This document shows positions 3,275-63,948 of a stretch of 64,000 nt of DNA, piece after piece (position 1 is the stretch's first letter; each line of letters begins with the position of its first letter). The notes beneath the pieces are model-generated. The model worked only from the letters and a program-made list of their open reading frames with translations. It was not told the DNA's origin and made no database searches. The translations under genes and the position numbers were made by a program. Source of the stretch: an uncultured Oscillospiraceae bacterium (GTDB lineage: Bacteria; Bacillota; Clostridia; Oscillospirales; Oscillospiraceae); assembly GCA_947584295.1 (NCBI GenBank), contig CANPWM010000002.1, forward strand, positions 7,937 through 71,936, written 5' to 3'.

Positions 3275-3317
3275 AGCGTTGGAAGTGCTGGAAAGTCAGT
3301 AATTCCAACGCTTTTTC
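3275..3317 (+). terminator. intrinsic terminator after tRNA-Ser
   Basis: AGCGTTGGAA ... TTCCAACGCT stem followed by TTTTT. Confidence 0.75.
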
Positions 3318-3426
3318 ATTTGTTAACGCATGGTGGGAAAAAGCTCGAAATGGTGGGGTTATCGTGTAAAAATCGTGTAGTAGCCGCTCTTTTCTGGAGG
3401 GTTTTTTGAGTGAATAAAGGAGATTA

Positions 3427-3480
3427 TTTCAATCAGAAGGGGAACCCTGACGGTTCCCCTTCCCAACCCTTCCCTCCGAA
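3427..3480 (+). repeat. R1 palindromic repeat, copy 1
   Basis: GAAGGGGAACC-ctgac-GGTTCCCCTTC core plus the conserved tail CCAACCCTTCCCTCCGAA. Matches copies at 4298, 4348 and 24931 (reverse). Confidence 0.85.
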
Positions 3481-3517
3481 AACTGGGACACAGTAAAATA
3501 TTTGTCATGAAAAGCGC

Positions 3518-4297: not shown

Positions 4298-4343
4298 ATT
4301 TCAACCGGAAGGGGAACCCTGATGGTTCCCCTTCCAACCGCCG
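4298..4343 (+). repeat. R1 palindromic repeat, copy 2 (truncated tail)
   Basis: GGAAGGGGAACC-ctgat-GGTTCCCCTTCC, lacking the CCCTTCCYTCCG tail. Confidence 0.8.
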
Positions 4344-4347
4344 CACG

Positions 4348-4414
4348 GCGGCGGGTGATTGAATCGGAAGGGGAACCCTGACGGTTCCCCTTCCAAACCC
4401 TTCCTTCCGAACAT
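4348..4414 (+). repeat. R1 palindromic repeat, copy 3 (full length)
   Basis: GGCGGCGGGTGATTGAATCGGAAGGGGAACCCTGACGGTTCCCCTTCCAAACCCTTCCTTCCGAACA. Nearly identical to the reverse complement of 24931-24994. Confidence 0.85.
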
Positions 4415-4460
4415 ACGGAAGCCTGATTTATTACGCAAATGTTCTGTACGGGCCGGACGC

Positions 4461-4568
4461 GTCGTCGCGGAACCGGCTTCACCTCGCATCCCCGCAGGGC
4501 GGGAACACTCAGGCGCACGGTTCGCTCCTCCTTTCCCCGTCGGGCAACGGCCCGATGGGGCCCCCAAT
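4461..4568 (+). repeat. R2 structured repeat, copy a (inside an R3 hairpin loop)
   Basis: GTCGTCGCGG-GAACCG...CGGTTC-GCTCCTCCTTTCCCC-hairpin-GGGGCCCCCAAT. Flanked by GGGCCG / CGGCCC, the two arms of an R3 palindrome. Confidence 0.85.
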
Positions 4569-4899
4569 GCGGCCCGCCAAACGAATTACGAAAAAGCCAT
4601 CGTACAATCTTGTAGGGGCCGCCGTCCCCGGCGGCCCGCCGAATTTCCGGCGCATTGCGTATAACGCGCCCATGTATCAAATTCTTGGAATTCTTTCCTA
4701 AATGTCAGTAGAGGCGGGTTCAAAACCCGCCTGCCAAATTCCCGGAAATTTAATTTCATCGCCGTACGGGCCGGACACCCGGCCGGCCCGCCATTCGAAT
4801 GACAATTTCGCCCTCCCAAAAAGGTTGGGGCTACGCCGCGTATTGAAAAAATGTCGGGCCGCCTCTCTTGGCGGCCCCTACATTGGAAATTCGATTCTT

Positions 4900-5499
4900 T
4901 TACATTTTCGCCTCCGCCCCCTGCTTCTCTCCGCCATACAGCATATGCGCTTTTTTCAGGGGCCGCTTCAGGGCCGGATAGAGCAGGGCGGCGCAGACCA
5001 TAGCGATAACACCGTTCACCAGCGTCGTCGGAAGCTTCACCGCCACGGTCTCGGCAATGGAAACCTGCCAGGTAAAGCCGCGCACAAGCACCCCGGACAG
5101 AATATTTTTCGTCACATACAAAAGGCAGTAGGTCAGCGTTCCCCCCAGGCCCGCCAGCCACGTCCTCAGATTTTCCGGTATTATACGAATATGGTGCATG
5201 ATAAGCCCAGCCACAAACGTCATCAGGAACTTGTTGATAAAAGTCATCCAGAAATCCGCCGCCCAGGTGGGATCTGTCAGATCCACAAGAGCGTTGCCCA
5301 GCCCCGCTGCCAGCCCGCCGGTAAGCGGCCCGAAAAGCAGGGCGGAGAGGATACACATGGCGTTGCCCACAGAGAGGGCCGTCCTCCCCAGCGGACTGGG
5401 AATGGGGATACTCACAAACTTTGTCAGCACAAAGATAAGCGCCGCCAACACCGCGGTAAGCGATATATTTCGGATCGTGAAAAACCTTTTCTTTTCCAT
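4900..5499 (-). CDS. ECF transporter S component (substrate unknown)
   Basis: 199 aa with about 6 TM segments. Typical ECF-S features: N-terminal RNISLTAVLAALIFVL, a GNAxxD region, no ATPase domain. No riboswitch recognised upstream. Confidence 0.65.
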   Translation of the reverse strand: MEKKRFFTIRNISLTAVLAALIFVLTKFVSIPIPSPLGRTALSVGNAMCILSALLFGPLTGGLAAGLGNALVDLTDPTWAADFWMTFINKFLMTFVAGLIMHHIRIIPENLRTWLAGLGGTLTYCLLYVTKNILSGVLVRGFTWQVSIAETVAVKLPTTLVNGVIAMVCAALLYPALKRPLKKAHMLYGGEKQGAEAKM

Positions 5500-5632
5500 C
5501 GTCCATAGCTCCTTCCAAGCCTGTTGTCAGGAGCTATTATACAACCGTCTGGTAATATTTAAATAGCCAGAAAAATATTATTTTTTATATCCAGTTTTCC
5601 TTATGTATCGGCAGCCCCCTTTCCCCTCCCCC

Positions 5633-11564: not shown

Positions 11565-11593
11565 ATTATACCATAAGCTATTTTTATTGTCAA
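11565..11593 (-). promoter_or_regulatory. near-consensus sigma-A promoter (copy D), antisense to the nucleotidyltransferase gene
   Basis: Minus strand reads AAAAAATAATTATTTTTTTGAAAAAAGTA-CTTGACA-17 bp-TGGTATAAT. The predicted TSS is about 33 nt beyond the stop codon at 11525, pointing into the gene. Confidence 0.6.
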
Positions 11594-11652
11594 GTACTTT
11601 TTTCAAAAAAATAATTATTTTTTAGCTTTATTTATTTTGCCCCATTTTTTAC

Positions 11653-11681: not shown

Positions 11682-11687
11682 CTCATC

Positions 11688-11838
<151 letters not shown>

Positions 11839-19345: not shown

Positions 19346-19453
19346 GTCGTCCTCGCGCGAGCCGCTTTACCTCGCCCTCCCTGACGGTCGGGTTCAGGCG
19401 CAGGCTCGGCTCGTCCTCTCCCCACCGGGCAACGGCCCGGCGGGGGCCCCATT
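19346..19453 (+). repeat. R2 structured repeat, copy c
   Basis: GTCGTCCTCGCG-CGAGCCG...CGGCTCG-TCCTCTCCCC-ACCGGGCaacgGCCCGGCGGGGGCCCC, in the trmL-pgk spacer. Confidence 0.8.
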
Positions 19454-20099: not shown

Positions 20100-20440
20100 G
20101 TTCCGCGCATATTTCACCGCTCCCGGCGGCCCACCCGGCAAATTTCGTATAACGCACCCGTAGGGGCGGCCGTCCCCGGCCGCCCGTCCCGGTTGATCTC
20201 CGGGCTGTCAATCATCGGGGGACGGGTCGCATTGGGGCCCCCATCGGGCCGCTGCCCGGTGGGGAGAGGAGGAGCGAACCTGGCGCGTGAGCGTTCCCGC
20301 CGCGCGGGGACGCGAGGTTAAGCCGGTTCCGCGACGACGCCGGCGACCCCTACGGGGTTGTACGGCACCTCTTCGGAAAAGCGACGACGCGGGGCAGCCG
20401 GTGTCCGGCACGTCCCGCGTCATTTGCGATATTGTCGTTA
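20100..20440. repeat. mosaic of GC-rich palindromic units (block Z; R3+R2)
   Basis: An intact R3 hairpin at 20160-20189 and an R3 hairpin split by R2 (arms 20217-20230 and 20339-20353). The linkers CGTATAACGC and CCGATGATTGAC are shared with block X. Confidence 0.8.
20231..20338 (-). repeat. R2 structured repeat, copy b (inside an R3 hairpin loop)
   Basis: Its reverse complement aligns along the full length of copy a. Flanked by GGGTCGC / GCGACCC arms. Confidence 0.85.
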
Positions 20441-20460: not shown

Positions 20461-21015
20461 TTACTCCTGCTTGCCGTTCAGCGCGTCAACGGCGGCGTCG
20501 AACTCACGCTTGGCCTCGCTGGCGGCCTCCTCGGCGGCGTTGGCGGCCTCCTGGGCGGTCTGCTCCACGGTATGCTCGATCTCGTCCACCACCTGCCCGG
20601 CGGGCGCGTCGGCGGGTTCGCCGGTGACCTCCGTCTCCGGCTTCTCTTGGGCGGAGAGGCTCTCGATCTCGGCCTGCTTGGCCTCGATGGACTCTAAGAC
20701 CGACTCGATAGCGGCGGCGGTCTCGGCGAAGTCGGGATCGGTATGACCGGCGTACTTCTCATAGTAGAGCTTGCCAAGCTCGGTGTACTTCTCCTTCAGG
20801 CCGCCGCGGGCGGCGGCGATCTCCGCGTTGAGCTTGGCCTTCTTGCCGGTGGTCTGGGCCTTTCCCGCCACGTCCTTGGCCGCGTCTGAGACCTTCCCGG
20901 CCACGTCGCGGGCGGTGTCTCCGGCCTTCCCGGCCACGTCCTTGGCCAGTCCCACGGCCTTGCCGGCGGCCTGGTTCAATTTTTCCTTCAGGTCATCAAA
21001 ATTAAAGCTTGCCAT
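20461..21015 (-). CDS. hypothetical protein with KDVAGKA repeats and an acidic C-terminal half
   Basis: Start set at MASFNFDDLKEKL, with a GGAGG SD 7 nt upstream. Starting the ORF at 21153 would overlap the lgt 3' end. No recognisable catalytic motif. Confidence 0.55.
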   Translation of the reverse strand: MASFNFDDLKEKLNQAAGKAVGLAKDVAGKAGDTARDVAGKVSDAAKDVAGKAQTTGKKAKLNAEIAAARGGLKEKYTELGKLYYEKYAGHTDPDFAETAAAIESVLESIEAKQAEIESLSAQEKPETEVTGEPADAPAGQVVDEIEHTVEQTAQEAANAAEEAASEAKREFDAAVDALNGKQE

Positions 21016-21136
21016 CAGTTTTACCTCCATTTGATTTTCTTGATTTGTTTTGAGTGTCAGCGTTCTGTTAAACGAGACGGCCCTGCGCGTTCTCAACAGC
21101 TCCCGCAGGGGTTCCAGCGCCTCGTCAAGCTCCTGT

Positions 21137-22156
21137 TCATTCATGGGCGTCACCGCTCCCGTCCCCGGAAGTCTCCTCCGGCGCCGCGCCGTCCTCCGCC
21201 GGGGCCTCCGGGGCCTCGTCCGCCTCCCGCTCCCCCGTCTCCGGGGCGGCAGGGGCGCTCTCCGATGCCGGGGCGCTCTCCGTATCTTCCGCCTCCGCGG
21301 CCGCGGCGGCCTTCTGGCGGTTTACGAACATCTTCTCCGGGTCCGGGCGGCGAATGAATCTATTATACAGCAAAAGGGCCGCAGATGCAAGGAAAAGAAT
21401 GAAGGACACCAGCTGGCTGACGCGGATACCCGTGTTGAAGAGGTAGAGGCTGTCGGTGCGCAGGCCCTCGATGAACATTCTCCCGAAGCCGTACCAGCAC
21501 AGATACCACAAAAACACCTGCCCGTCGTACCGGCGGTGTTTTTTGGAGAAAAAGTGCATCAGCGTGAAACCGATGAGGTTCCACAGGGACTCGTAGAGGA
21601 AGGTGGGGTGGACGGCGTAGGCGGTGCCGTCGGGGAGGGTCAGCACCATGCGGCAGAAGATGTCCGTCTGATAGCCGAAGGCCTCCCGGTTCATGAAGTT
21701 CCCCCACCGGCCCAGGGTCTGGCCGATGATAAAGCCGAAAAACACCATGTCCAAAAAGGCGGGAATGGACAGCTTCTTCCACACGCAGTAGATGACCAGG
21801 GCCAAAATCGCCCCGGCGATGACGCCGTACATCCCTATGCCCCCCTGCCAGATATACAGGACGGAGATGGGGTCGTCGGCGAAAAGATCCCAGTGGAACA
21901 GGCAGAAATAGATCCGCGCGCCGATGATGGCCAGGGGGACGCCCAGAATGATCACGTCAAAGACGTTGTCCGGCGTCAGGCCGAACTCCTTGGAGCGCCT
22001 GGCGCAGTACAGCACCGCCAGCAAAAAGCCCGTGGCGATGATGATGCCGTACCAGTGGACGGTCAGCGGGCCGATATGGATCACGGGCGAGGGATCAATG
22101 GACCAGTCCCCCAGCATGGGGAAGGAGATGGAAGCTTCCGGGTAGGCTGTTTTCAT
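21137..22156 (-). CDS. lgt: prolipoprotein diacylglyceryl transferase
   Basis: HWYGIIIATG..., GARIYF, GRWGNFMNREAFG signature. Has an Ala/Pro/Glu-rich C-terminal extension of about 70 aa. Confidence 0.9.
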   Translation of the reverse strand: MKTAYPEASISFPMLGDWSIDPSPVIHIGPLTVHWYGIIIATGFLLAVLYCARRSKEFGLTPDNVFDVIILGVPLAIIGARIYFCLFHWDLFADDPISVLYIWQGGIGMYGVIAGAILALVIYCVWKKLSIPAFLDMVFFGFIIGQTLGRWGNFMNREAFGYQTDIFCRMVLTLPDGTAYAVHPTFLYESLWNLIGFTLMHFFSKKHRRYDGQVFLWYLCWYGFGRMFIEGLRTDSLYLFNTGIRVSQLVSFILFLASAALLLYNRFIRRPDPEKMFVNRQKAAAAAEAEDTESAPASESAPAAPETGEREADEAPEAPAEDGAAPEETSGDGSGDAHE

Positions 22157-24779: not shown

Positions 24780-25345
24780 ACGGAAAAAACAATAGATTTG
24801 CGGAAATTCTCCGCCGCCTCCGGCGGCGGAGAATACAACCTAATGGAAAGGTTTTCCCGAAATGCGGCGGGCCGGCCGGGTGTCCGGCCCGTACAGAACA
24901 TTATTCGGATAAAAAACAGTTCCCGTATGAGCGGAGGGAAGGGTTTGGAAGGGGAACCGTCAGGGTTCCCCTTCTGATTCAATCACCCGCCGCCATACGA
25001 AACATCTCCCCCCATATCTTTTCGCTTCCCCCAACGTAAAATTTATCCGTACGGGCCGGACACCCGGCCGGCCCGCCTATCGAATTACAAAAAAACCATC
25101 GTATAACGCCGTACGGGCCGCCGCCCACGGCGGCCCATGGCACCATCGAATTTCGCAACAACCCATTATTATGCTTCCGTAGGGGTCGCCCTCCCGGGCG
25201 ACCCGTCCACCGATGATTGACCACCCGGAGGTTCACCGGGACGGGCCGCCCGGGAGGGTGGCCCCTACGGCGGTTAAATTAAATTTCCCATAATTCGTTT
25301 GTCGGGGCGGCCGTCCCCGGCCGCCCCGCCCGCCGAACCTCCGGG
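24780..25345. repeat. mosaic of GC-rich palindromic units (block X; R1+R3, no R2)
   Basis: R3 hairpins at about 24866-24894 (reverse), 25049-25077, 25111-25136, 25179-25208, 25241-25268 (reverse) and 25301-25330, plus R1 at 24931-24994. Collinear with parts of blocks Y and Z. Confidence 0.8.
24931..24994 (-). repeat. R1 palindromic repeat, copy 4
   Basis: The reverse complement reads GGCGGCGGGTGATTGAATCAGAAGGGGAACCCTGACGGTTCCCCTTCCAAACCCTTCCCTCCGC. Confidence 0.85.
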
Positions 25346-27318: not shown

Positions 27319-27352
27319 AAAGCGGATATCCGAAAGGAATATCCGCTTTGCC
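27319..27352 (+). terminator. hairpin terminator between asnB and trkH
   Basis: GCGGATATCC-gaaa-GGAATATCCGC followed by TTTGCCGTTTGTTT. A second GC hairpin without a T-run lies at 27276-27305. Confidence 0.6.
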
Positions 27353-27393
27353 GTTTGTTTACAAAAAATTAATTATTTTTATAATATTTTTAC

Positions 27394-27422
27394 TTGACAT
27401 ATGGGGGAGCGTATGGTATAAT
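27394..27422 (+). promoter_or_regulatory. near-consensus sigma-A promoter (copy A), antisense to trkH
   Basis: ACAAAAAATTAATTATTTTTATAATATTTTTA-CTTGACA-17 bp-TGGTATAAT. The predicted TSS is about 26 nt outside the trkH stop (27455), pointing into trkH. 39/41 identity of UP+-35 with copy B. Confidence 0.6.
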
Positions 27423-27454
27423 CCAAAGCGTAGGGGGAAGTGCGCCTATCGGGG

Positions 27455-31455: not shown

Positions 31456-33654
31456 ATGAAGATCATCAAGCGAAACGGCGCGGAGATGGATTTTGACATC
31501 AAGAAGATCGAGAACGCCATCAGCAAGGCCAATATGTCCGTGGAGGAGTCGTCCCGCATGACGCCCCTCCAGATCCGGCGCATATCCGAGTCCGTGGCCC
31601 TGGACTGCGAAAACATGGGCCGAAGCCCCTCCGTGGAGGAGATACAGGATCTGGTGGAGAAGCAGATCATGGCCCACGGGGCCTTTGAGGTGGCCAAGAA
31701 CTACATCACCTACCGCTACACCAGGAGCCTGGTGCGCCAGAGCAACACCACCGACGAGAAGATCCTCTCCCTCATCGAGTGCTGCAACGAGGAGGCCAAG
31801 CAGGAGAACTCCAACAAGAACCCCGTGGTCAACTCCACCCAGCGCGACTACATGGCCGGTGAGGTCAGCCGCGACCTCTCCGAGCGCATCCTTCTCCCCC
31901 GGGACATCGTGGAGGCCCACGAGGCCGGGATCATTCACTTCCACGACACCGACTATTACGCTCAGCATATGCACAACTGCGACCTGGTGAACCTGGAGGA
32001 TATGCTCCAGAACGGCACCGTCATCACCGGCACCCTTATCGAGCGTCCCCACAGCTTCTCCACCGCCTGCAACATCGCCACGCAGATCATCGCCCAGGTG
32101 GCCTCCAACCAGTACGGCGGCCAGTCCATCTCCCTTACGCATCTGGCCCCCTTTGTGGACGTGAGCCGCCGGAAGATCCGCAAGGTGGTGGAAAACGAGC
32201 TGGTGACTCTGGGCGTCAACCCCGAAGAGGATAAGATCCAGAAGATCGTGGAGGACAGGCTCCTGGAGGAGATCCGCCGGGGCGTCCAGACTATCCAGTA
32301 CCAGGTGGTCACCCTGCTCACCACCAACGGGCAGGCCCCCTTCGTCACCGTGTTCATGTATCTGGGCGAGGCCCGCTCTGAGCGGGAGCGGGAGGATCTG
32401 GCCCTGATCATCAGGGAGGTCCTGCTCCAGCGCTACGAGGGCACCAAGAACGAGGACGGCGTATGGGTCACCCCCGCCTTCCCCAAGCTCATCTACGTTC
32501 TGGAGGAGGACAACATCACCGAGGGATCCCGGTATTGGGAGCTTACAAAGCTGGCGGCCAAATGCACCGCCCGCCGCATGGTCCCCGACTACATCAGCGA
32601 GAAGAAGATGCTGGAGCTTAAAGGCGACGTCTACACCTGCATGGGCTGCCGCTCCTTCCTGACCCCCGACCGCTTCACCGACGCGGGCGTGGGCAACATC
32701 GCCAACGCCGGAAACTACGAGCCGGGCAAGCACAAATACTACGGCCGTTTCAACCAGGGCGTGGTCACCATCAATCTCCCCGACGTGGCCCTCTCCTCCG
32801 GCGGCAATATGGACAAGTTCTGGAGCATCTTTGAGGAGCGCCTGGAGCTGTGCCACCGGGCCCTGCGGTGCCGTCACGAGCGGCTTCTGGGCACCCCCTC
32901 CGACGTGGCCCCCATTCTCTGGCAGCACGGCGCCCTGGCCCGCCTGGAAAAAGGCGAACCCATCGACAGGCTCCTCTACGGCGGCTACTCCACTATCTCC
33001 TTGGGCTACGCCGGTCTTTATGAGTGTGTCAAGTACATGACCGGCAGATCCCACACCGACCCGGAGGCCACCCCCTTCGCCCTGGCGGTGATGCAGAAGA
33101 TGAACGACAAGTGCAAGGAGTGGAAGACGGCGGAGAACATCGACTACTCCCTCTACGGCACGCCCCTGGAGTCCACCACCTACAAGTTCGCCAAGTGCCT
33201 CCAGCGCCGCTTCGGCATCATCGAGGGCATCACCGACAAGGGCTACATCACCAACTCCTACCACGTCCACGTCACCGAGCAGATCGACGCTTTCACCAAG
33301 CTCAAATTCGAGTCCGAGTTCCAGGCCCTCTCCCCCGGCGGCGCCATCAGCTACGTGGAGGTGCCGGATATGCAGAACAACCTGGAGGCCGTTTTGCAGG
33401 TGATGCGGTTCATCTACGACAACATCATCTACGCCGAGCTGAACACCAAGTCCGACTACTGCCAGTGCTGCGGCTGGGACGGCGAGATCGACATCGTGGA
33501 GGAGGACGGCAAGCTCATCTGGAAATGCCCCAAGTGCGGCAACACCGACCAGAACAAGATGAACGTGGCCCGGCGCACCTGCGGCTACATCGGCACCCAG
33601 TTCTGGAACCAGGGCCGGACCCAGGAGATCAGAGACCGGGTACTCCACCTTTAA
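31456..33654 (+). CDS. nrdD: anaerobic ribonucleoside-triphosphate reductase
   Basis: 732 aa. N-terminal ATP-cone (MKIIKRNGAEMDFDIKKI), C-terminal Zn ribbon CQCCGW...CPKCG and glycyl radical motif RTCGYIG. Confidence 0.95.
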   Translation: MKIIKRNGAEMDFDIKKIENAISKANMSVEESSRMTPLQIRRISESVALDCENMGRSPSVEEIQDLVEKQIMAHGAFEVAKNYITYRYTRSLVRQSNTTDEKILSLIECCNEEAKQENSNKNPVVNSTQRDYMAGEVSRDLSERILLPRDIVEAHEAGIIHFHDTDYYAQHMHNCDLVNLEDMLQNGTVITGTLIERPHSFSTACNIATQIIAQVASNQYGGQSISLTHLAPFVDVSRRKIRKVVENELVTLGVNPEEDKIQKIVEDRLLEEIRRGVQTIQYQVVTLLTTNGQAPFVTVFMYLGEARSEREREDLALIIREVLLQRYEGTKNEDGVWVTPAFPKLIYVLEEDNITEGSRYWELTKLAAKCTARRMVPDYISEKKMLELKGDVYTCMGCRSFLTPDRFTDAGVGNIANAGNYEPGKHKYYGRFNQGVVTINLPDVALSSGGNMDKFWSIFEERLELCHRALRCRHERLLGTPSDVAPILWQHGALARLEKGEPIDRLLYGGYSTISLGYAGLYECVKYMTGRSHTDPEATPFALAVMQKMNDKCKEWKTAENIDYSLYGTPLESTTYKFAKCLQRRFGIIEGITDKGYITNSYHVHVTEQIDAFTKLKFESEFQALSPGGAISYVEVPDMQNNLEAVLQVMRFIYDNIIYAELNTKSDYCQCCGWDGEIDIVEEDGKLIWKCPKCGNTDQNKMNVARRTCGYIGTQFWNQGRTQEIRDRVLHL

Positions 33655-33913
33655 TACTAATATCTAATTAAAATAAGACATTCGCGCCGGTCTTTTTTCG
33701 TCCTCGCACGAGCCGCTTAACCTCGGGCTGCAAGTATTCGCCCTCAGGCGCTGGCTCGGCTCGGCCTCTCCCCATCGGGCAGCGGCCCGATGGGGGCCCC
33801 GGATACTGCGTCAGCCGCCTTGGGAATACATACAGTATTCCCTGCGGTGTCTTCCTTGCCTGACACGAAAAATCCTCGCCGCTCGGTGTCTCCTTTTAAA
33901 TAGATATTAGTAT
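33654..33913. mobile_element. MITE-like 260-bp insertion between nrdD and nrdG
   Basis: Terminal inverted repeats ATACTAATATCTAATTAAAA (33654-33673) and TTTTAAATAGATATTAGTAT (33894-33913) match 19/20. The interior holds an R2 copy and a GGGAATAC-atac-AGTATTCCC hairpin; no ORF. Confidence 0.65.
33699..33800 (+). repeat. R2 structured repeat, copy d
   Basis: CGTCCTCGCA-CGAGCCG...CGGCTCG-GCCTCTCCCC-ATCGGGCagcgGCCCGATGGGGGCCCC. Confidence 0.8.
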
Positions 33914-33922
33914 CAAACTAAC

Positions 33923-34061: not shown

Positions 34062-34604
34062 ATGACGACGATGAATTATGGTGAGATCAAAAACTGCGAC
34101 ATTGCCAACGGTCAGGGGGTGCGGGTGACGCTCTTTGTCTCCGGCTGTACCAACCACTGCCAGGGGTGCTTCCAGCCCCAGACCTGGGATTTTGACTTCG
34201 GCAGGCCCTTCACCCGGGAGGCGGAGGATCAGCTGATGGAGATGCTGGCCCCCGGCTACATCAACGGCCTGACGCTCCTGGGCGGCGAGCCTATGGAGCC
34301 GTCCAATCAGCGGGCGCTGCTGCCCTTTGTCCGCCGCGTCCGGGAAACCTACCCGGACAAGACCGTGTGGTGCTACTCCGGCTTCACCTTAGAGGAGCTT
34401 CGCACCGACGGCTCCCACCCCCGGTGCGAGGCGACGGACGAGCTGCTCTCCCTTATCGACGTCCTGGTGGACGGCAAGTTCGTCCTGGCCCAGAAGGACA
34501 TCTCCCTGCGCTTTCGCGGCTCCCGGAACCAGCGGATCATCGCCCTGCCCAAGACGCTGAAAACAGGCCGGATCTGCCTGTGGGACGACCATCTGGGCAA
34601 ATAA
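34062..34604 (+). CDS. nrdG: anaerobic ribonucleoside-triphosphate reductase activating protein
   Basis: DIANGQGVRVTLFVSGCTNHCQGCFQPQTW radical SAM cluster motif; 180 aa. Confidence 0.9.
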   Translation: MTTMNYGEIKNCDIANGQGVRVTLFVSGCTNHCQGCFQPQTWDFDFGRPFTREAEDQLMEMLAPGYINGLTLLGGEPMEPSNQRALLPFVRRVRETYPDKTVWCYSGFTLEELRTDGSHPRCEATDELLSLIDVLVDGKFVLAQKDISLRFRGSRNQRIIALPKTLKTGRICLWDDHLGK

Positions 34605-59907: not shown

Positions 59908-60014
59908 TTTGGGGCCCCCGCGCGATCATGATCGCGTGGGGAAAGGAGGAGCGAAGTCAGCGAGTGAGCCGCGCCGTGAGCGGCACGGGGAGCTATCGCG
60001 ACTTCCGCGACGAC
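59908..60014 (-). repeat. R2 structured repeat, copy e (overlaps the acn 3' end)
   Basis: The reverse complement reads GTCGTCGCGG-AAGTC...GACTT-CGCTCCTCCTTTCCCC-ACGCGATCatGATCGCGCGGGGGCCCCAAAAT. The first 22 nt encode the last 7 codons and the stop of acn. Confidence 0.8.
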
Positions 60015-62227
60015 GCATACCAGTTCATGAGGCAGCCCTCAAGAATAATTTCACGTTCTTTTTGCGTAAGCTCCGGGAGCTTCAGGGTGATGTCCGTCAC
60101 CCGGCCGCCGGAGAGGGCCTTGGCGGGGATCTCCCGCGCGCCGGACTCCACGGCCTTTTTCACGCCGGGGACGTAGATAAGGTCGCCGGGTTCAAAGGGG
60201 AAATCGGCGTCCCCGTCGATGTTGAAGGGCAGCATGCCCCAGTTGATGCAGTTGGAGCGGTAACGCTTGGTGGCGTACTCATAGCAGATGTTGGCCCCGC
60301 CGCCCAGCACCCGCTGGCAGGAGGCCGCCTGCTCCCGGGCGGAGCCGTCGCCGGGGCGGTTGGCGAAGATGGCGGAGGCCAGGGCGGTGTTCTCCACGTC
60401 CGTGACGCCCAGCTTCTCGAAGGCGGCCAGCAGCGCCCCGTCCGGGGCCTTGCTCCCCCGCTCCCGAATGGCGTTGGCCCGGCCCACATAGGCCGGATCC
60501 CGGCGGGAGAGGGCGAAGGTGGCCAGCTTCAGGGGGTTGGAGCGGTAGCTGGAGGTGTCGCCGGAGGGGATCAGCTCGTCGGTGGTGGTCACCGGGTCCC
60601 GGAGGACGCTGGCCAGCTCCAGGACGATATTCTCCTTCAGGGCCGGAATGGCGGGCCATTCGGTGATGTTGGGGCCAAGGCGCAGCTCCTCCTCCGGGTG
60701 GGGGTCGCCAAAGCCGTTATAGACGCGTTTATCGTAGGCGCTCCTGTCGTACCGGCGCTCTACCGGGGCGGGGGGCGTGTAGTCGATCTCGTCCGCGCCG
60801 GTGAGTACGCCGCCGTTTCGCGCCGTGGCGGCGATGGAGCGGGCGTCCATCAGGGCCACGCAGGAGAGCTGTCCCTCCGCCGGTTTCGACCCCTCCCGGT
60901 TGGGGAAGTTGCGGGTGCAGTGGCGGATAGAGAGGCCGCTGTTCACCGGCACGTCCCCCGCGCCGAAGCAGGGGCCGCAGAAGCAGGGCTTGAACACCGC
61001 CCCCATGGCGGTGAGGCGCTGGGTCACGCCGTTGTTCATCAGCTCCATGGCCACGGGCAGGCTGGGCGGGTAGACCGTCAGGCCGAAATATCCCGCGCCG
61101 ATGCCGCCGGAGGCCAGAATGGCCGCGGCCTCGGCGATGTTGTCGTACATACCGCCGGAGCATCCGGCGATAACGCCCTGATCCACGTAGAGCCGGCCGT
61201 TTTTGACCTTGCTCACCAGATCCAGCTTCACCTTGCCCTTGAACTTCCCCTGGGCGGACTTCTCCGTTTCCCGGAGGATATCGGTGAGGTTGGCCTTCAG
61301 CTCCCGAATGGTGTACGCCTCGCTGGGGTGGAAGGGCAGGGCGATCATAGGCTCCACCGTGGAGAGGTCGATCTCCACGCAGGCGTCGTAATAGGCCCCC
61401 TCCCCCGGCTCCAGCTTCTTATAGTCCCCGGGCCGCCCGTGGACGCGGTAATATTCCTCCACCCTGCTGTCCGTCTGCCAGATGGAGCTTAAACAGGCCG
61501 TCTCGGTGGTCATCACGTCGATGCCGATGCGGAAATCCATGGGCAGGCTCTCGAGGCCGGGGCCGGCGAACTCCAGGACGGAGTTGAGGACGAAATTGTT
61601 CTTGTACGTGGCGCCGCACAGGGCGATGGCCACGTCCTGGGGGCCTACGCCCCTTCGGGGCGCGCCGGTGAGATACACCAGCACCGTCCGGGGATAGGCC
61701 ACGTCGTAGGTGGCCTCCAAAAGCTGCTTGACGATCTCCGGGCCGCCCTCGCCCACGCCCATGGTACCCAGCGCGCCGTAGCGGGTGTGGCTGTCGGAGC
61801 CTAAGATCATTTTGCCGCACCCGGCCAGCTCCTCCCGGGCGTACTGGTGGATAACGGCGAAGGAGGGGGGTACGAAAATACCGCCGTATTTCCGGGCCGC
61901 CGAAAGGCCGAAGGCGTGGTCGTCGGCGTTGATGGTGCCGCCTACGGCGCACAGGCTGTTGTGGCAGTTGGTCATGACGTAGGGCACCGGGAACCGCTGA
62001 AGGCCGCTGCCCTTGGCCGTCTGAAGGATACCCACATAGGTGATGTCGTGGGAGATGAGACTGTCGAAGGCGATACGCAGGTTTTTCCCGTCCGTCCCTT
62101 TGTCATGGGCGGACAAAATGGCGTGGGCGATAGTCTTTTTCCGCCCCGCCTCCGGGTCCTGCCCGGGCGCTTCAAAGACGGGCCTGCCGCCCAGATAATA
62201 GGTTCCCTTGTCGTGTAATGTGACCAT
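59993..62227 (-). CDS. acn: aconitate hydratase (monomeric Fe-S hydro-lyase)
   Basis: 744 aa. GSDSHT, CGPCFG and NREGS-type motifs. The C-terminal 7 residues (ASSRKSR) are read from repeat sequence. Confidence 0.9.
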   Translation of the reverse strand: MVTLHDKGTYYLGGRPVFEAPGQDPEAGRKKTIAHAILSAHDKGTDGKNLRIAFDSLISHDITYVGILQTAKGSGLQRFPVPYVMTNCHNSLCAVGGTINADDHAFGLSAARKYGGIFVPPSFAVIHQYAREELAGCGKMILGSDSHTRYGALGTMGVGEGGPEIVKQLLEATYDVAYPRTVLVYLTGAPRRGVGPQDVAIALCGATYKNNFVLNSVLEFAGPGLESLPMDFRIGIDVMTTETACLSSIWQTDSRVEEYYRVHGRPGDYKKLEPGEGAYYDACVEIDLSTVEPMIALPFHPSEAYTIRELKANLTDILRETEKSAQGKFKGKVKLDLVSKVKNGRLYVDQGVIAGCSGGMYDNIAEAAAILASGGIGAGYFGLTVYPPSLPVAMELMNNGVTQRLTAMGAVFKPCFCGPCFGAGDVPVNSGLSIRHCTRNFPNREGSKPAEGQLSCVALMDARSIAATARNGGVLTGADEIDYTPPAPVERRYDRSAYDKRVYNGFGDPHPEEELRLGPNITEWPAIPALKENIVLELASVLRDPVTTTDELIPSGDTSSYRSNPLKLATFALSRRDPAYVGRANAIRERGSKAPDGALLAAFEKLGVTDVENTALASAIFANRPGDGSAREQAASCQRVLGGGANICYEYATKRYRSNCINWGMLPFNIDGDADFPFEPGDLIYVPGVKKAVESGAREIPAKALSGGRVTDITLKLPELTQKEREIILEGCLMNWYASSRKSR

Positions 62228-63823: not shown

Positions 63824-63873
63824 CAGTTGACCAGAGAGGCCCGAAAAACGGGCTTCCCTCCTACGCAGTTTGG

Positions 63874-63902
63874 ATTATACCACAAGGGTGCTTATTTGTC
63901 AA
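63874..63902 (-). promoter_or_regulatory. near-consensus sigma-A promoter (copy B), antisense to citrate synthase
   Basis: Minus strand reads CACAAAAAATTAATTATTTTTATTATATTTTTA-CTTGACA-17 bp-TGGTATAAT-CCAAACTGCGTAGGAGGGAAG. The predicted TSS is about 44 nt beyond the gltA stop, pointing into gltA. Confidence 0.6.
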
Positions 63903-63948
63903 GTAAAAATATAATAAAAATAATTAATTTTTTGTGAACAACGGGCGA

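Follow-up and report, generated by a model that had tools for sequence, protein, structure and literature searches.

The window analysed here, a stretch of 64,000 nucleotides from an uncultured Oscillospiraceae bacterium (GenBank assembly GCA_947584295.1, contig CANPWM010000002.1, positions 7,937 to 71,936), carries one repeat nested inside another. Upstream of a SpoU methylase gene, a repetitive extragenic palindrome (REP) of the kind designated R3 is interrupted in its hairpin loop by R2b, a copy of a second repeat designated R2. The best explanation, to which we give a probability of about 0.6, is that R2b is a copy of a non-autonomous, mobile, structured repeat of about 105 nt that landed in the REP loop of an R3 doublet resembling the REPINs (REP doublets forming hairpins). 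The elements that make up the locus, and its intact paralogue, are as follows.

20341..20353, minus strand: left part of the split REP (GTAGGGGTCGCCG), made up of the GTAG head, GGGTCGC as the ascending arm and a single loop base; identical to 25179-25190 of Block X
20234..20340, plus strand (the better-folding strand, or G-strand): R2b, GGGGCCCCC...GCGACGACGC; found by pattern and by covariance model, 74.2 bits, E 7e-18
20160..20233, minus strand: rest of the host REPIN-like doublet, comprising AAT, GCGACCC as the descending arm, a spacer and the other REP, in inverted orientation (GTAGGGGCGGCCGTCCCCGGCCGCCC on the plus strand from 20160)
25177..25270, plus strand: Block X, the intact host paralogue, an inverted REP doublet forming one long hairpin, REPIN-like

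An R2 copy inside a REP hairpin

Read on the minus strand, the locus runs through GTAGGGGTCGCCG (20353-20341), GC plus a 105-nt core (20340-20234), AAT (20233-20231) and GCGACCCGTCC (20230-20220); 3' of this come a spacer and the second, inverted REP palindrome, which ends CCCCTAC at 20160. Block X reads GTAGGGGTCGCC-CTCCCG-GGCGACCCGTCC..., the same order with the arms separated by CTCCCG alone. Once the 105-nt core is removed, the R2b locus aligns locally with Block X over about 112 nt with two 1-nt gaps, and the mismatches in that alignment are concentrated in the hairpin loop. This is the alignment proposed in a preliminary description of the locus, and it confirms the claim made there that R2b splits an R3 hairpin whose intact counterpart is Block X: the flanks are collinear, and R2b is an extra segment in the loop. 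An independent repeat search recovers the flank match to Block X (73 nt, 85%, pair I4) and the match between R2b and a second copy, R2a (131 nt, 85%, pair I1). An independent metagenome assembly of the same strain from another sample (L321) has the identical arrangement of REP and R2b, so the arrangement is not an assembly artefact.

The host itself belongs to a well-known kind of repeat. The window holds 11 palindromic REP units with a GTAG, GTAC or GTCG head, lying in three intergenic clusters. The units are extragenic, multi-copy, G+C-rich imperfect palindromes of about 27 nt that fold at -17 to -26 kcal/mol, and the unpaired GTAG-type tag at the end of the palindrome is present, in one of its three forms, on 11 of 11. 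In Block X the doublet has 32-nt arms that are 91% complementary (pair I15), and 104 nt there have a minimum free energy of -81.5 kcal/mol.

About 4440-4900: REP cluster 1, downstream of the S component of an energy-coupling factor (ECF) riboflavin transporter and beside a relB/parE pair
20160-20353: REP cluster 2, between an open reading frame (ORF) of 230 aa and the SpoU methylase gene
About 24860-25330: REP cluster 3, between an M16 peptidase gene and asparagine synthase
4612..4638, plus strand: an intact GTAG REP unit, given as an example (repeat family D2)
4764 (plus), 4881 (minus), 24894 (minus), 25049 (plus), 25111 (plus) and 25301 (plus): further intact REP units

These heads, palindromes and the inverted doublet match the defining traits of GTAG-tagged REPs and REPINs (as in PMC3733652 and PMC3116915), which makes R3 an ordinary member of the GTAG-tagged REPs and Block X an inverted doublet of REPIN-like form. 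The host is ordinary except for residing in a Clostridia genome. REP/REPIN systems and the associated RAYT transposases (REP-associated tyrosine transposases) have been reported mostly in Proteobacteria (PMC3733652, PMC3116915, PMC2817692, PMC3333891). R3 resembles them in its head, its palindrome, its extragenic clustering and the folding of a doublet as one hairpin, and differs in its Clostridia chromosome; R2 is another matter, being four times longer than a REP and not a simple palindrome.

A pattern built on R2a and R2b finds five full copies of R2 in the window, and a later covariance model finds a sixth, divergent one, so that the two copies first described have become five full and one divergent. 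The repeat length, first put at 108 nt, is corrected to about 105-107 nt across the family; R2b, inside its REP loop, is a copy of 107 bases. The remaining copies in the window are these.

4459..4565, minus strand (G-strand): R2a, 79.5 bits, 87% column identity to R2b; splits a GTAC-type REP (4446-4458 / 4569-4578)
19347..19450, minus strand: R2c, in the spacer between spoU and pgk, G-strand sense to both genes; 77.6 bits
33698..33800, minus strand: R2d, downstream of nrdD and at the same position in loci L028 and L090; 75 bits
33981..34073, plus strand: R2f, divergent, with a degenerate first hairpin; 39.4 bits, E 9e-9
59911..60016, plus strand: R2e, overlapping the 3' end of an aconitase-family ORF; 83.9 bits

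R2a bears out the pattern as a second filled site, and does so in a different type of REP, with a GTAC head and intact copies nearby: it separates GTACGGGCCGGAC from GCGGCCCGCC, and intact GTACGGGCCGGACACCCGGCCGGCCCGCC units stand at 4764, 25049 and, on the minus strand, 24894. Two of the five full copies in the window (R2a, R2b) therefore lie in REP loops. By a rough estimate that sets about 55 nt of loop sequence against about 6 kb of intergenic DNA, the chance of this is about 1e-3.

Extent, fold and ends of the R2 family

R2 is a large family and not a two-copy repeat. The R2 pattern occurs at no fewer than 120 loci (at least) in a species-level genome collection, mostly under Oscillospiraceae, Lawsonibacter, Pseudoflavonifractor, Oscillibacter and unclassified Clostridia names, with a few, among the matches listed, under Bacteroidota names (Paludibacteraceae, Alloprevotella, Alistipes). 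It also occurs in at least 120 contigs of IMG/VR. The family statistics below come from genome loci L001-L120 and viral contig loci L201-L320, which yield 197 non-redundant copies of R2. At some loci two or three units follow one another head to tail, the period being 99-109 nt (L064 1376-1703, L032 3658-3862, L054 about 3294-3500).

The family appears to be new, no description of it having been found. With the whole window searched at gathering score, Rfam 15 returns a thiamine pyrophosphate (TPP) riboswitch and tRNA only, and permissive scans (E up to 10) over copies a-f return nothing above chance; R2 as a known RNA family is therefore rejected, there being no match at curated or permissive thresholds. 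Annotated phage and plasmid collections give no R2 match by blastn, three long R2 consensus strings occur in none of the searchable papers, and no paper was found that links REPs or transposable elements of the miniature inverted-repeat type (MITEs) with Oscillospiraceae. A protein-coding role was also considered: the GAC-GAC frame is open in 66 of 101 copies, versus 46 and 45 for the other frames. Coding as a general property is rejected: an in-frame TGA is conserved in subfamily 1, and the peptides show no conservation. Small interspersed repeats shape bacterial intergenic regions and are well described in few phyla, and R2 is abundant in a dominant bacterial group of human and animal guts and in its phages.

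R2 folds into a free GGGG tail, a hairpin with CCCC at the start of its stem and GGGG at the end, and a long hairpin with a variable tip. The base of the long hairpin consists of three tandem mismatches, 5'-GA-3' opposite 5'-GA-3', with a G-C pair clamping each of them (GA-G-GA-G-GA-GC ... GC-GA-C-GA-C-GA). RNAalifold on 100 non-identical copies finds double compensatory changes at 14 of 19 pairs. The three tandem units are GA/GA in 92, 83 and 69 of the 100 copies; where they are not, two Watson-Crick pairs mostly take their place (GC/GC, GA/TC). Such swapping of whole units is what a real helix would lead one to expect. Internal units of the tandem arrays have a truncated outer tandem-G.A part of this helix.

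The two strands fold unequally. The G-strand, 5' GGGGNCCCC ... GCGACGACGA 3', is laid out as 5' GGGGNCCCC-hairpin-GGGG-A-(GA-G)3C ... GC(GA-C)2GA 3' and its folds average -54.2 kcal/mol, versus -43.1 for the complementary strand. In 98 of 100 copies the G-strand folds more stably than its complement (p = 4.5e-18), as it does in all 93 copies of an independent viral set. Its pair cells are 94.9% standard, with G.U outnumbering A.C by 122 to 16.

The ends of R2 were examined over all 197 copies. Immediately before GTCGTCGC, 195 of them have a C, and the position preceding it is T, G or A in 148, 28 and 19. On the folding strand these bases, at -1 and -2, are the outermost (third) tandem-G.A unit of the basal helix, and so the left "GC" of the junction belongs to R2. 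The right "GC" is the first two bases of the REP descending arm, which disposes of the 2-bp duplication that the preliminary description had suspected. No target duplication of 2 bp or any other length tested rises above noise: 197 junction pairs, examined for lengths 2-6 at 36 offset combinations each (180 in total), give at best 1-5 matches, and the candidate is rejected. R2 has no terminal inverted repeats, its ends TCGTCGTCGC... and ...GGGGNCCCC not being complementary. On the 5' side of the G-strand there is a loose A/T-rich stretch of 3-4 nt (AWY), and no fixed 4-5-nt target adjoins either end. Covariation of guide and target positions of the IS608 type was looked for as well and rejected, with no flank-interior signal above subfamily structure. 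Nor do the R3 arms hold up as the specific target, since 195 of 197 copies have no GTAG arms and none splits a GTAG palindrome beyond this window.

Host sites: hairpins, strains and start codons

The tendency that generalises is an association with the loops of assorted hairpins in chromosomes, not with R3 arms. When a flank stem is defined as a perfect stem of at least 6 bp within 8-10 nt of both junctions, 18 of 104 chromosomal copies lie in one, versus 2.6 +/- 1.5 with re-paired flanks, an enrichment of about 7-fold that none of 200 shuffles attains (0/200 reach 18). A looser flank-stem test agrees, and the hosting stems are of unrelated sequence. Phage contigs have 2 of 93 copies in such stems, with 1.5 expected.

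One palindrome, H, is found in several states in related metagenome-assembled genomes (MAGs): filled one way (L006, L027, L112), filled the other way (L016), and empty (the second copy in L027). The fillings in both orientations lie between the same loop flanks. On the sequences at hand these states are hard to explain except by what would be separate insertions, and they bear on an account with no insertion, in which the R2-containing form is ancestral or recombinant and the intact REPs are deletion derivatives, or R2 and its arms were copied as a composite. R2a and R2b do share three flanking bases (AAT) and similar arms (GCGRCCCG), R2 does sit within larger recurring composites in some MAGs (e.g. 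L007/L044/L045 and L003/L019/L087), and the "empty" H loop carries TCG...CTC, possibly a deletion scar. Deletion leaves unexplained, however, the opposite orientations of R2 between unchanged H loop flanks. Against it stand also the 195 copies free of GTAG arms, nine intact REP units in the same window, and hosts of different REP types (GTAG, GTAC) for two copies that differ from each other at about 13% of positions. We regard an account without insertion as highly improbable.

Both strains and species differ from one another by gain and loss of R2. Three contigs encode a PGK identical to that of the window; two match the window exactly, and the third, L322, comes from the same species and differs from it. 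Where the window has R2c and its immediate flanks, L322 has an unrelated 46-nt stretch, and in place of the region of the REPIN and R2b it has a different repeat. The R2a, R2d and R2f sites are unchanged in all same-species contigs found. The R2b and R2c copies are accordingly strain-variable, although these contigs yielded no precise empty site. Farther afield, spoU and pgk are adjacent, in that order, in about 70 of 80 metagenome loci retrieved (SpoU identity 67-80%); none of the 80 orthologous loci has R2 between the two genes, where spacers measure 12-229 nt. Synteny upstream of spoU, where an empty counterpart of the R2b site was sought, is missing from these 80 loci, and the spoU protein itself is absent from the records searched. 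The palindrome GGGYAATTTTCTCTGAATTTCGCAAAATTCAGAGAAAATTRCCC occupies the spoU-upstream site in L322 (1-140), and also adjoins R2 in a rabbit-gut MAG (L027, about 5480-5560). The intergenic site upstream of spoU looks like a hot spot for repeats of different kinds.

A second kind of host site is the start of a gene. In 27 of 197 copies (19 of 95 viral, 8 of 104 chromosomal) an ATG begins exactly 3 nt past the G-strand end ...GCGACGAC; at other offsets the count is about 0-9, with a background of about 3 per offset. Most of these +3 ATGs open long ORFs of unrelated genes, e.g. a MurG-like N-terminus (recognised by eye) and a DUF2800 nuclease gene. Many of the copies concerned have a native Shine-Dalgarno sequence (SD) 4-6 nt upstream of the R2 5' end. 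With the SD directly upstream and the ATG at +3, R2 sits inside the spacer from SD to ATG. Counting gene starts no more than 15 nt away gives 32 on the side of the G-strand and 3 on the opposite strand. More generally, the G-strand is sense to both neighbours in 29 cases versus antisense to both in 17 in chromosomes, and in 36 versus 15 in viral contigs (p = 0.0046). In the window, the G-strand end of R2f (GACGACG) runs straight into the ATG, at 34071, of nrdG, the anaerobic ribonucleotide reductase activase gene, and no ordinary SD is visible between the two. R2b, R2d and R2e are antisense to their neighbours. The segment between nrdD and nrdG has a further peculiarity: 31-nt A+T-rich inverted repeats (33650-33680 / 33887-33917, 87% complementary) bracket 268 bp that contain R2d and a further GGGAATAC...GTATTCCC hairpin, a layout resembling an invertible or mobile segment.

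R2 also enters reading frames. The aconitase-family ORF (59993-62227, minus strand) reads into R2e, from which its last eight codons and stop (59993-60016) derive. A few phage ORFs are open through R2 in one or the other orientation (L220/L228, L227, L281); ORFs spanning R2 prefer no single frame and most look spurious. In the homologous IMG/VR phage ORFs of L220 and L228, R2 stands at the same position, C-strand and in frame, and adds about 35 residues (VL..S.S...PQAA...CGLPGTP). In all, R2 is tolerated in hairpin loops, in SD-to-ATG spacers (in the sense orientation only), at gene 3' ends and, in a few phage genes, in frame. For annotation this means that R2 explains spurious extensions of gene ends such as that of the aconitase-family ORF, and it may contribute to MAG contig breaks in these taxa. 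That a mobile element may lie within a ribosome-binding site and spare the gene, or may even provide such a site, is made testable by the copies between SD and start codon.

These positions have precedents. The interspersed repetitive units of mycobacteria (MIRUs) are tandem minisatellites in which stop and start codons overlap, and R2 resembles them in its intercistronic sense position touching a start codon and in its occasional tandem arrays (L064, L032, L054). In phage T4 gene 38, a hairpin of about 20 nt, not a mobile one, lies between SD and AUG; R2 is alike as a folded insert between the two.

The gene-start copies also give substance to a reading in which R2 is a functional RNA module first and a spreading repeat second. 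Transcribed in the G-sense, it would exert its effect on the mRNA, perhaps as a folded, portable ribosome-binding region, with GGAGGAG held in a weak G.A helix beside the AUG, perhaps as an mRNA stabiliser or processing site. Selection on RNA function would explain both the fold and the positions of the copies. The excess of G-strand sense copies, the +3 ATGs, the almost exclusively G-sense gene starts and the abutment of R2f on nrdG all speak for it, as do the preponderance of G.U over A.C pairs and a strand asymmetry much larger with RNA than with DNA parameters. G.T pairs and tandem G.A are tolerated in single-stranded DNA too, however, so the asymmetry is no proof of RNA. About a third of the copies between co-directional genes are antisense, others lie between convergent or divergent genes, and the window copies b, d and e run against their neighbours. 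Conservation does not extend beyond R2 to a promoter or terminator of its own, and relatives do without R2 in orthologous spacers, some as short as 12-40 nt. That R2 is first of all an RNA module strikes us as possible but rather unlikely. A role at the RNA level, as a portable or regulated ribosome-binding region, is nevertheless a serious alternative, and one compatible with mobility.

Proposed mobility, related systems and other repeats

If R2 is mobile, as the preferred reading has it, its conserved single-strand fold would be the recognition target of an unlinked, trans-acting enzyme, and R2 would be kept foldable on one strand because the fold is needed for propagation. Unpaired DNA, such as the loops of extruded or replication-exposed hairpins, may be the favoured point of entry, and R2a and R2b would be copies that landed in REP loops. 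By folding on itself, R2 probably keeps both flanks of the insertion site near each other, which would account for its survival in stems and ribosome-binding sites. The hairpin association could reflect a preference at entry, or survival where hairpins abound.

The absence of inverted repeats and of target duplication, together with the strand asymmetry, points to single-strand or site-specific mechanisms, which may be of the HUH/Y1 or IS110-like kind or run through an RNA intermediate. But R2 has neither a fixed target nor covariation of the guide type, and no enzyme gene is linked to it. Subterminal hairpins, no inverted repeats, no duplication and strand asymmetry are the features by which miniatures derived from the insertion sequences (ISs) IS200/IS605 (palindrome-associated transposable elements, PATEs) are recognised, and R2 has them all. 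A specific version of the mobile-repeat explanation would accordingly make R2 the miniature of an HUH/Y1 transposon, IS200/IS605- or RAYT-like, mobilised as folded single-stranded DNA at replication forks. A hairpin at or near each end of R2 fits this version. GTAG REPs, on which RAYT enzymes act (PMC3333891, PMC2817692), also abound in the genome. The sense bias would fit a preference for the lagging-strand template if genes are mostly co-oriented with replication. What it lacks is a fixed 4-5-nt target by either end, the 5' flank of the G-strand being a loose AWY, covariation of flank bases with internal "guide" positions, and a Y1 transposase or TnpB gene recurring beside the copies. The right-hand hairpin, furthermore, reaches the very end of R2, unlike the ends of IS608-type elements. 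In this specific form the explanation is unlikely.

A further idea, decidedly doubtful, is that R2 represents a new class of mobile element, defined by a single-strand fold that contains a (GGA)n/(GAC)n tandem-G.A helix and serves both as mobilisation handle and as a G-sense RNA module. Such a module may let R2 live in ribosome-binding sites, hairpin stems and coding regions, and might act as a translation-initiation region, portable or switchable, or else as an RNA subject to removal or bypass. Whatever its class, the unusual and strongly covarying fold offers a concrete handle for finding the mobilising enzyme.

Several points weigh against reading R2b as a mobile repeat that landed in its REP. 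The orthologous R2b site offers no clean pair of filled and empty states, since L322, the only same-species variant, carries a replacement. No transposase or reverse transcriptase recurs beside R2 among 1,255 neighbouring ORFs. The hairpin enrichment is absent from phage contigs, and the association may therefore reflect survival of insertions, not entry; in chromosomes, the shuffle test behind the 7-fold figure takes no account of the base rate of hairpins in intergenic DNA. Copies at orthologous sites are uncollapsed, so that some counts overstate the number of independent events, and the orientation counts rest on heuristic gene calls. Folding energies of single sequences, with DNA parameters, go barely beyond those of shuffles (z from -1.1 to -3.7). 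Thermodynamic significance of this kind is weak as evidence of structure and is not relied on here; the case for an R2 structure rests on covariation.

Among the neighbouring ORFs, the annotatable clusters are phage structural or replication genes and large serine recombinases. An autonomous parent was also sought, and about 1.9 Mb of fetched loci contain no copy in which a gene lies between the two ends. The half-elements of L080 and L109 adjoin mobilisation genes and a membrane-protein gene, not transposases.

The nesting has well-studied parallels. REP palindromes serve as insertion targets in Pseudomonas, where a small RNA module is also documented to spread into REPs (PMC1525189, PMC12288879). 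The REP-targeting ISs (IS110-family ISPpu9/ISPpu10, ISPa11, ISPsy8) resemble R2 as mobile DNA landing inside REP palindromes, and the hitch-hiking small RNA module ssr9 resembles it as a small non-coding element that spreads into REPs without a transposase of its own. The ISs, however, are specific for one REP sequence, whereas R2 lies in many unrelated hairpins and in non-hairpin sites, and no IS110-type gene was seen beside any R2 copy. Given the Pseudomonas precedents, R2 within a REP is a known kind of event, and it is the inserted family that appears to be new.

Elements of similar size and habit occur in other taxa. Rickettsia palindromic elements (RPEs) are structured, multi-copy repeats of about 100-150 nt that lie in intergenic regions and in frame within genes, and they are not known to have a transposase. 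The enterobacterial ERIC and RU elements (PMC2759123) are like R2 in the same respects: about 100-150 nt, structured, multi-copy, with no known transposase, and both intergenic and in-frame. R2 differs from RPE, ERIC and RU in having two hairpins and a GGA/GAC tandem-G.A helix where these have a single long palindrome, in its taxon, and in its sharp preference for a fixed distance to the start codon. MITEs (Correia, RUP and BOX-type pneumococcal repeats; PMC3049150, PMC3184786) are likewise short, non-coding, high-copy and intergenic, and can alter the ends of genes beside them. Classical MITEs, however, are defined by terminal inverted repeats and target duplication, both of which were tested for in R2 and are absent.

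The window contains further repeats. The 230-aa ORF (20461-21153, minus strand) beside the R2b locus has no Pfam match; three 33-nt tandem repeats within it (20857-20967) encode an AGKA..D.AKDV-like motif. A third repeat family, of about 50 nt with the hairpin GGAAGGGGAACC-CTGA-GGTTCCCCTTCC, occurs at 3428-3480, 4300-4352, 4359-4411 and, on the minus strand, 24932-24982; its copies flank the relB/parE toxin-antitoxin pair and lie beside REP clusters. Finally, an A+T-rich block of about 60-80 nt with TTGTCAAGTA is found at 11565-11623, 27350-27427 and 63869-63946 (73-83% identity, one copy inverted). One copy of the block stands just upstream of the TPP riboswitch (11683-11790), and it looks like a shared promoter region.

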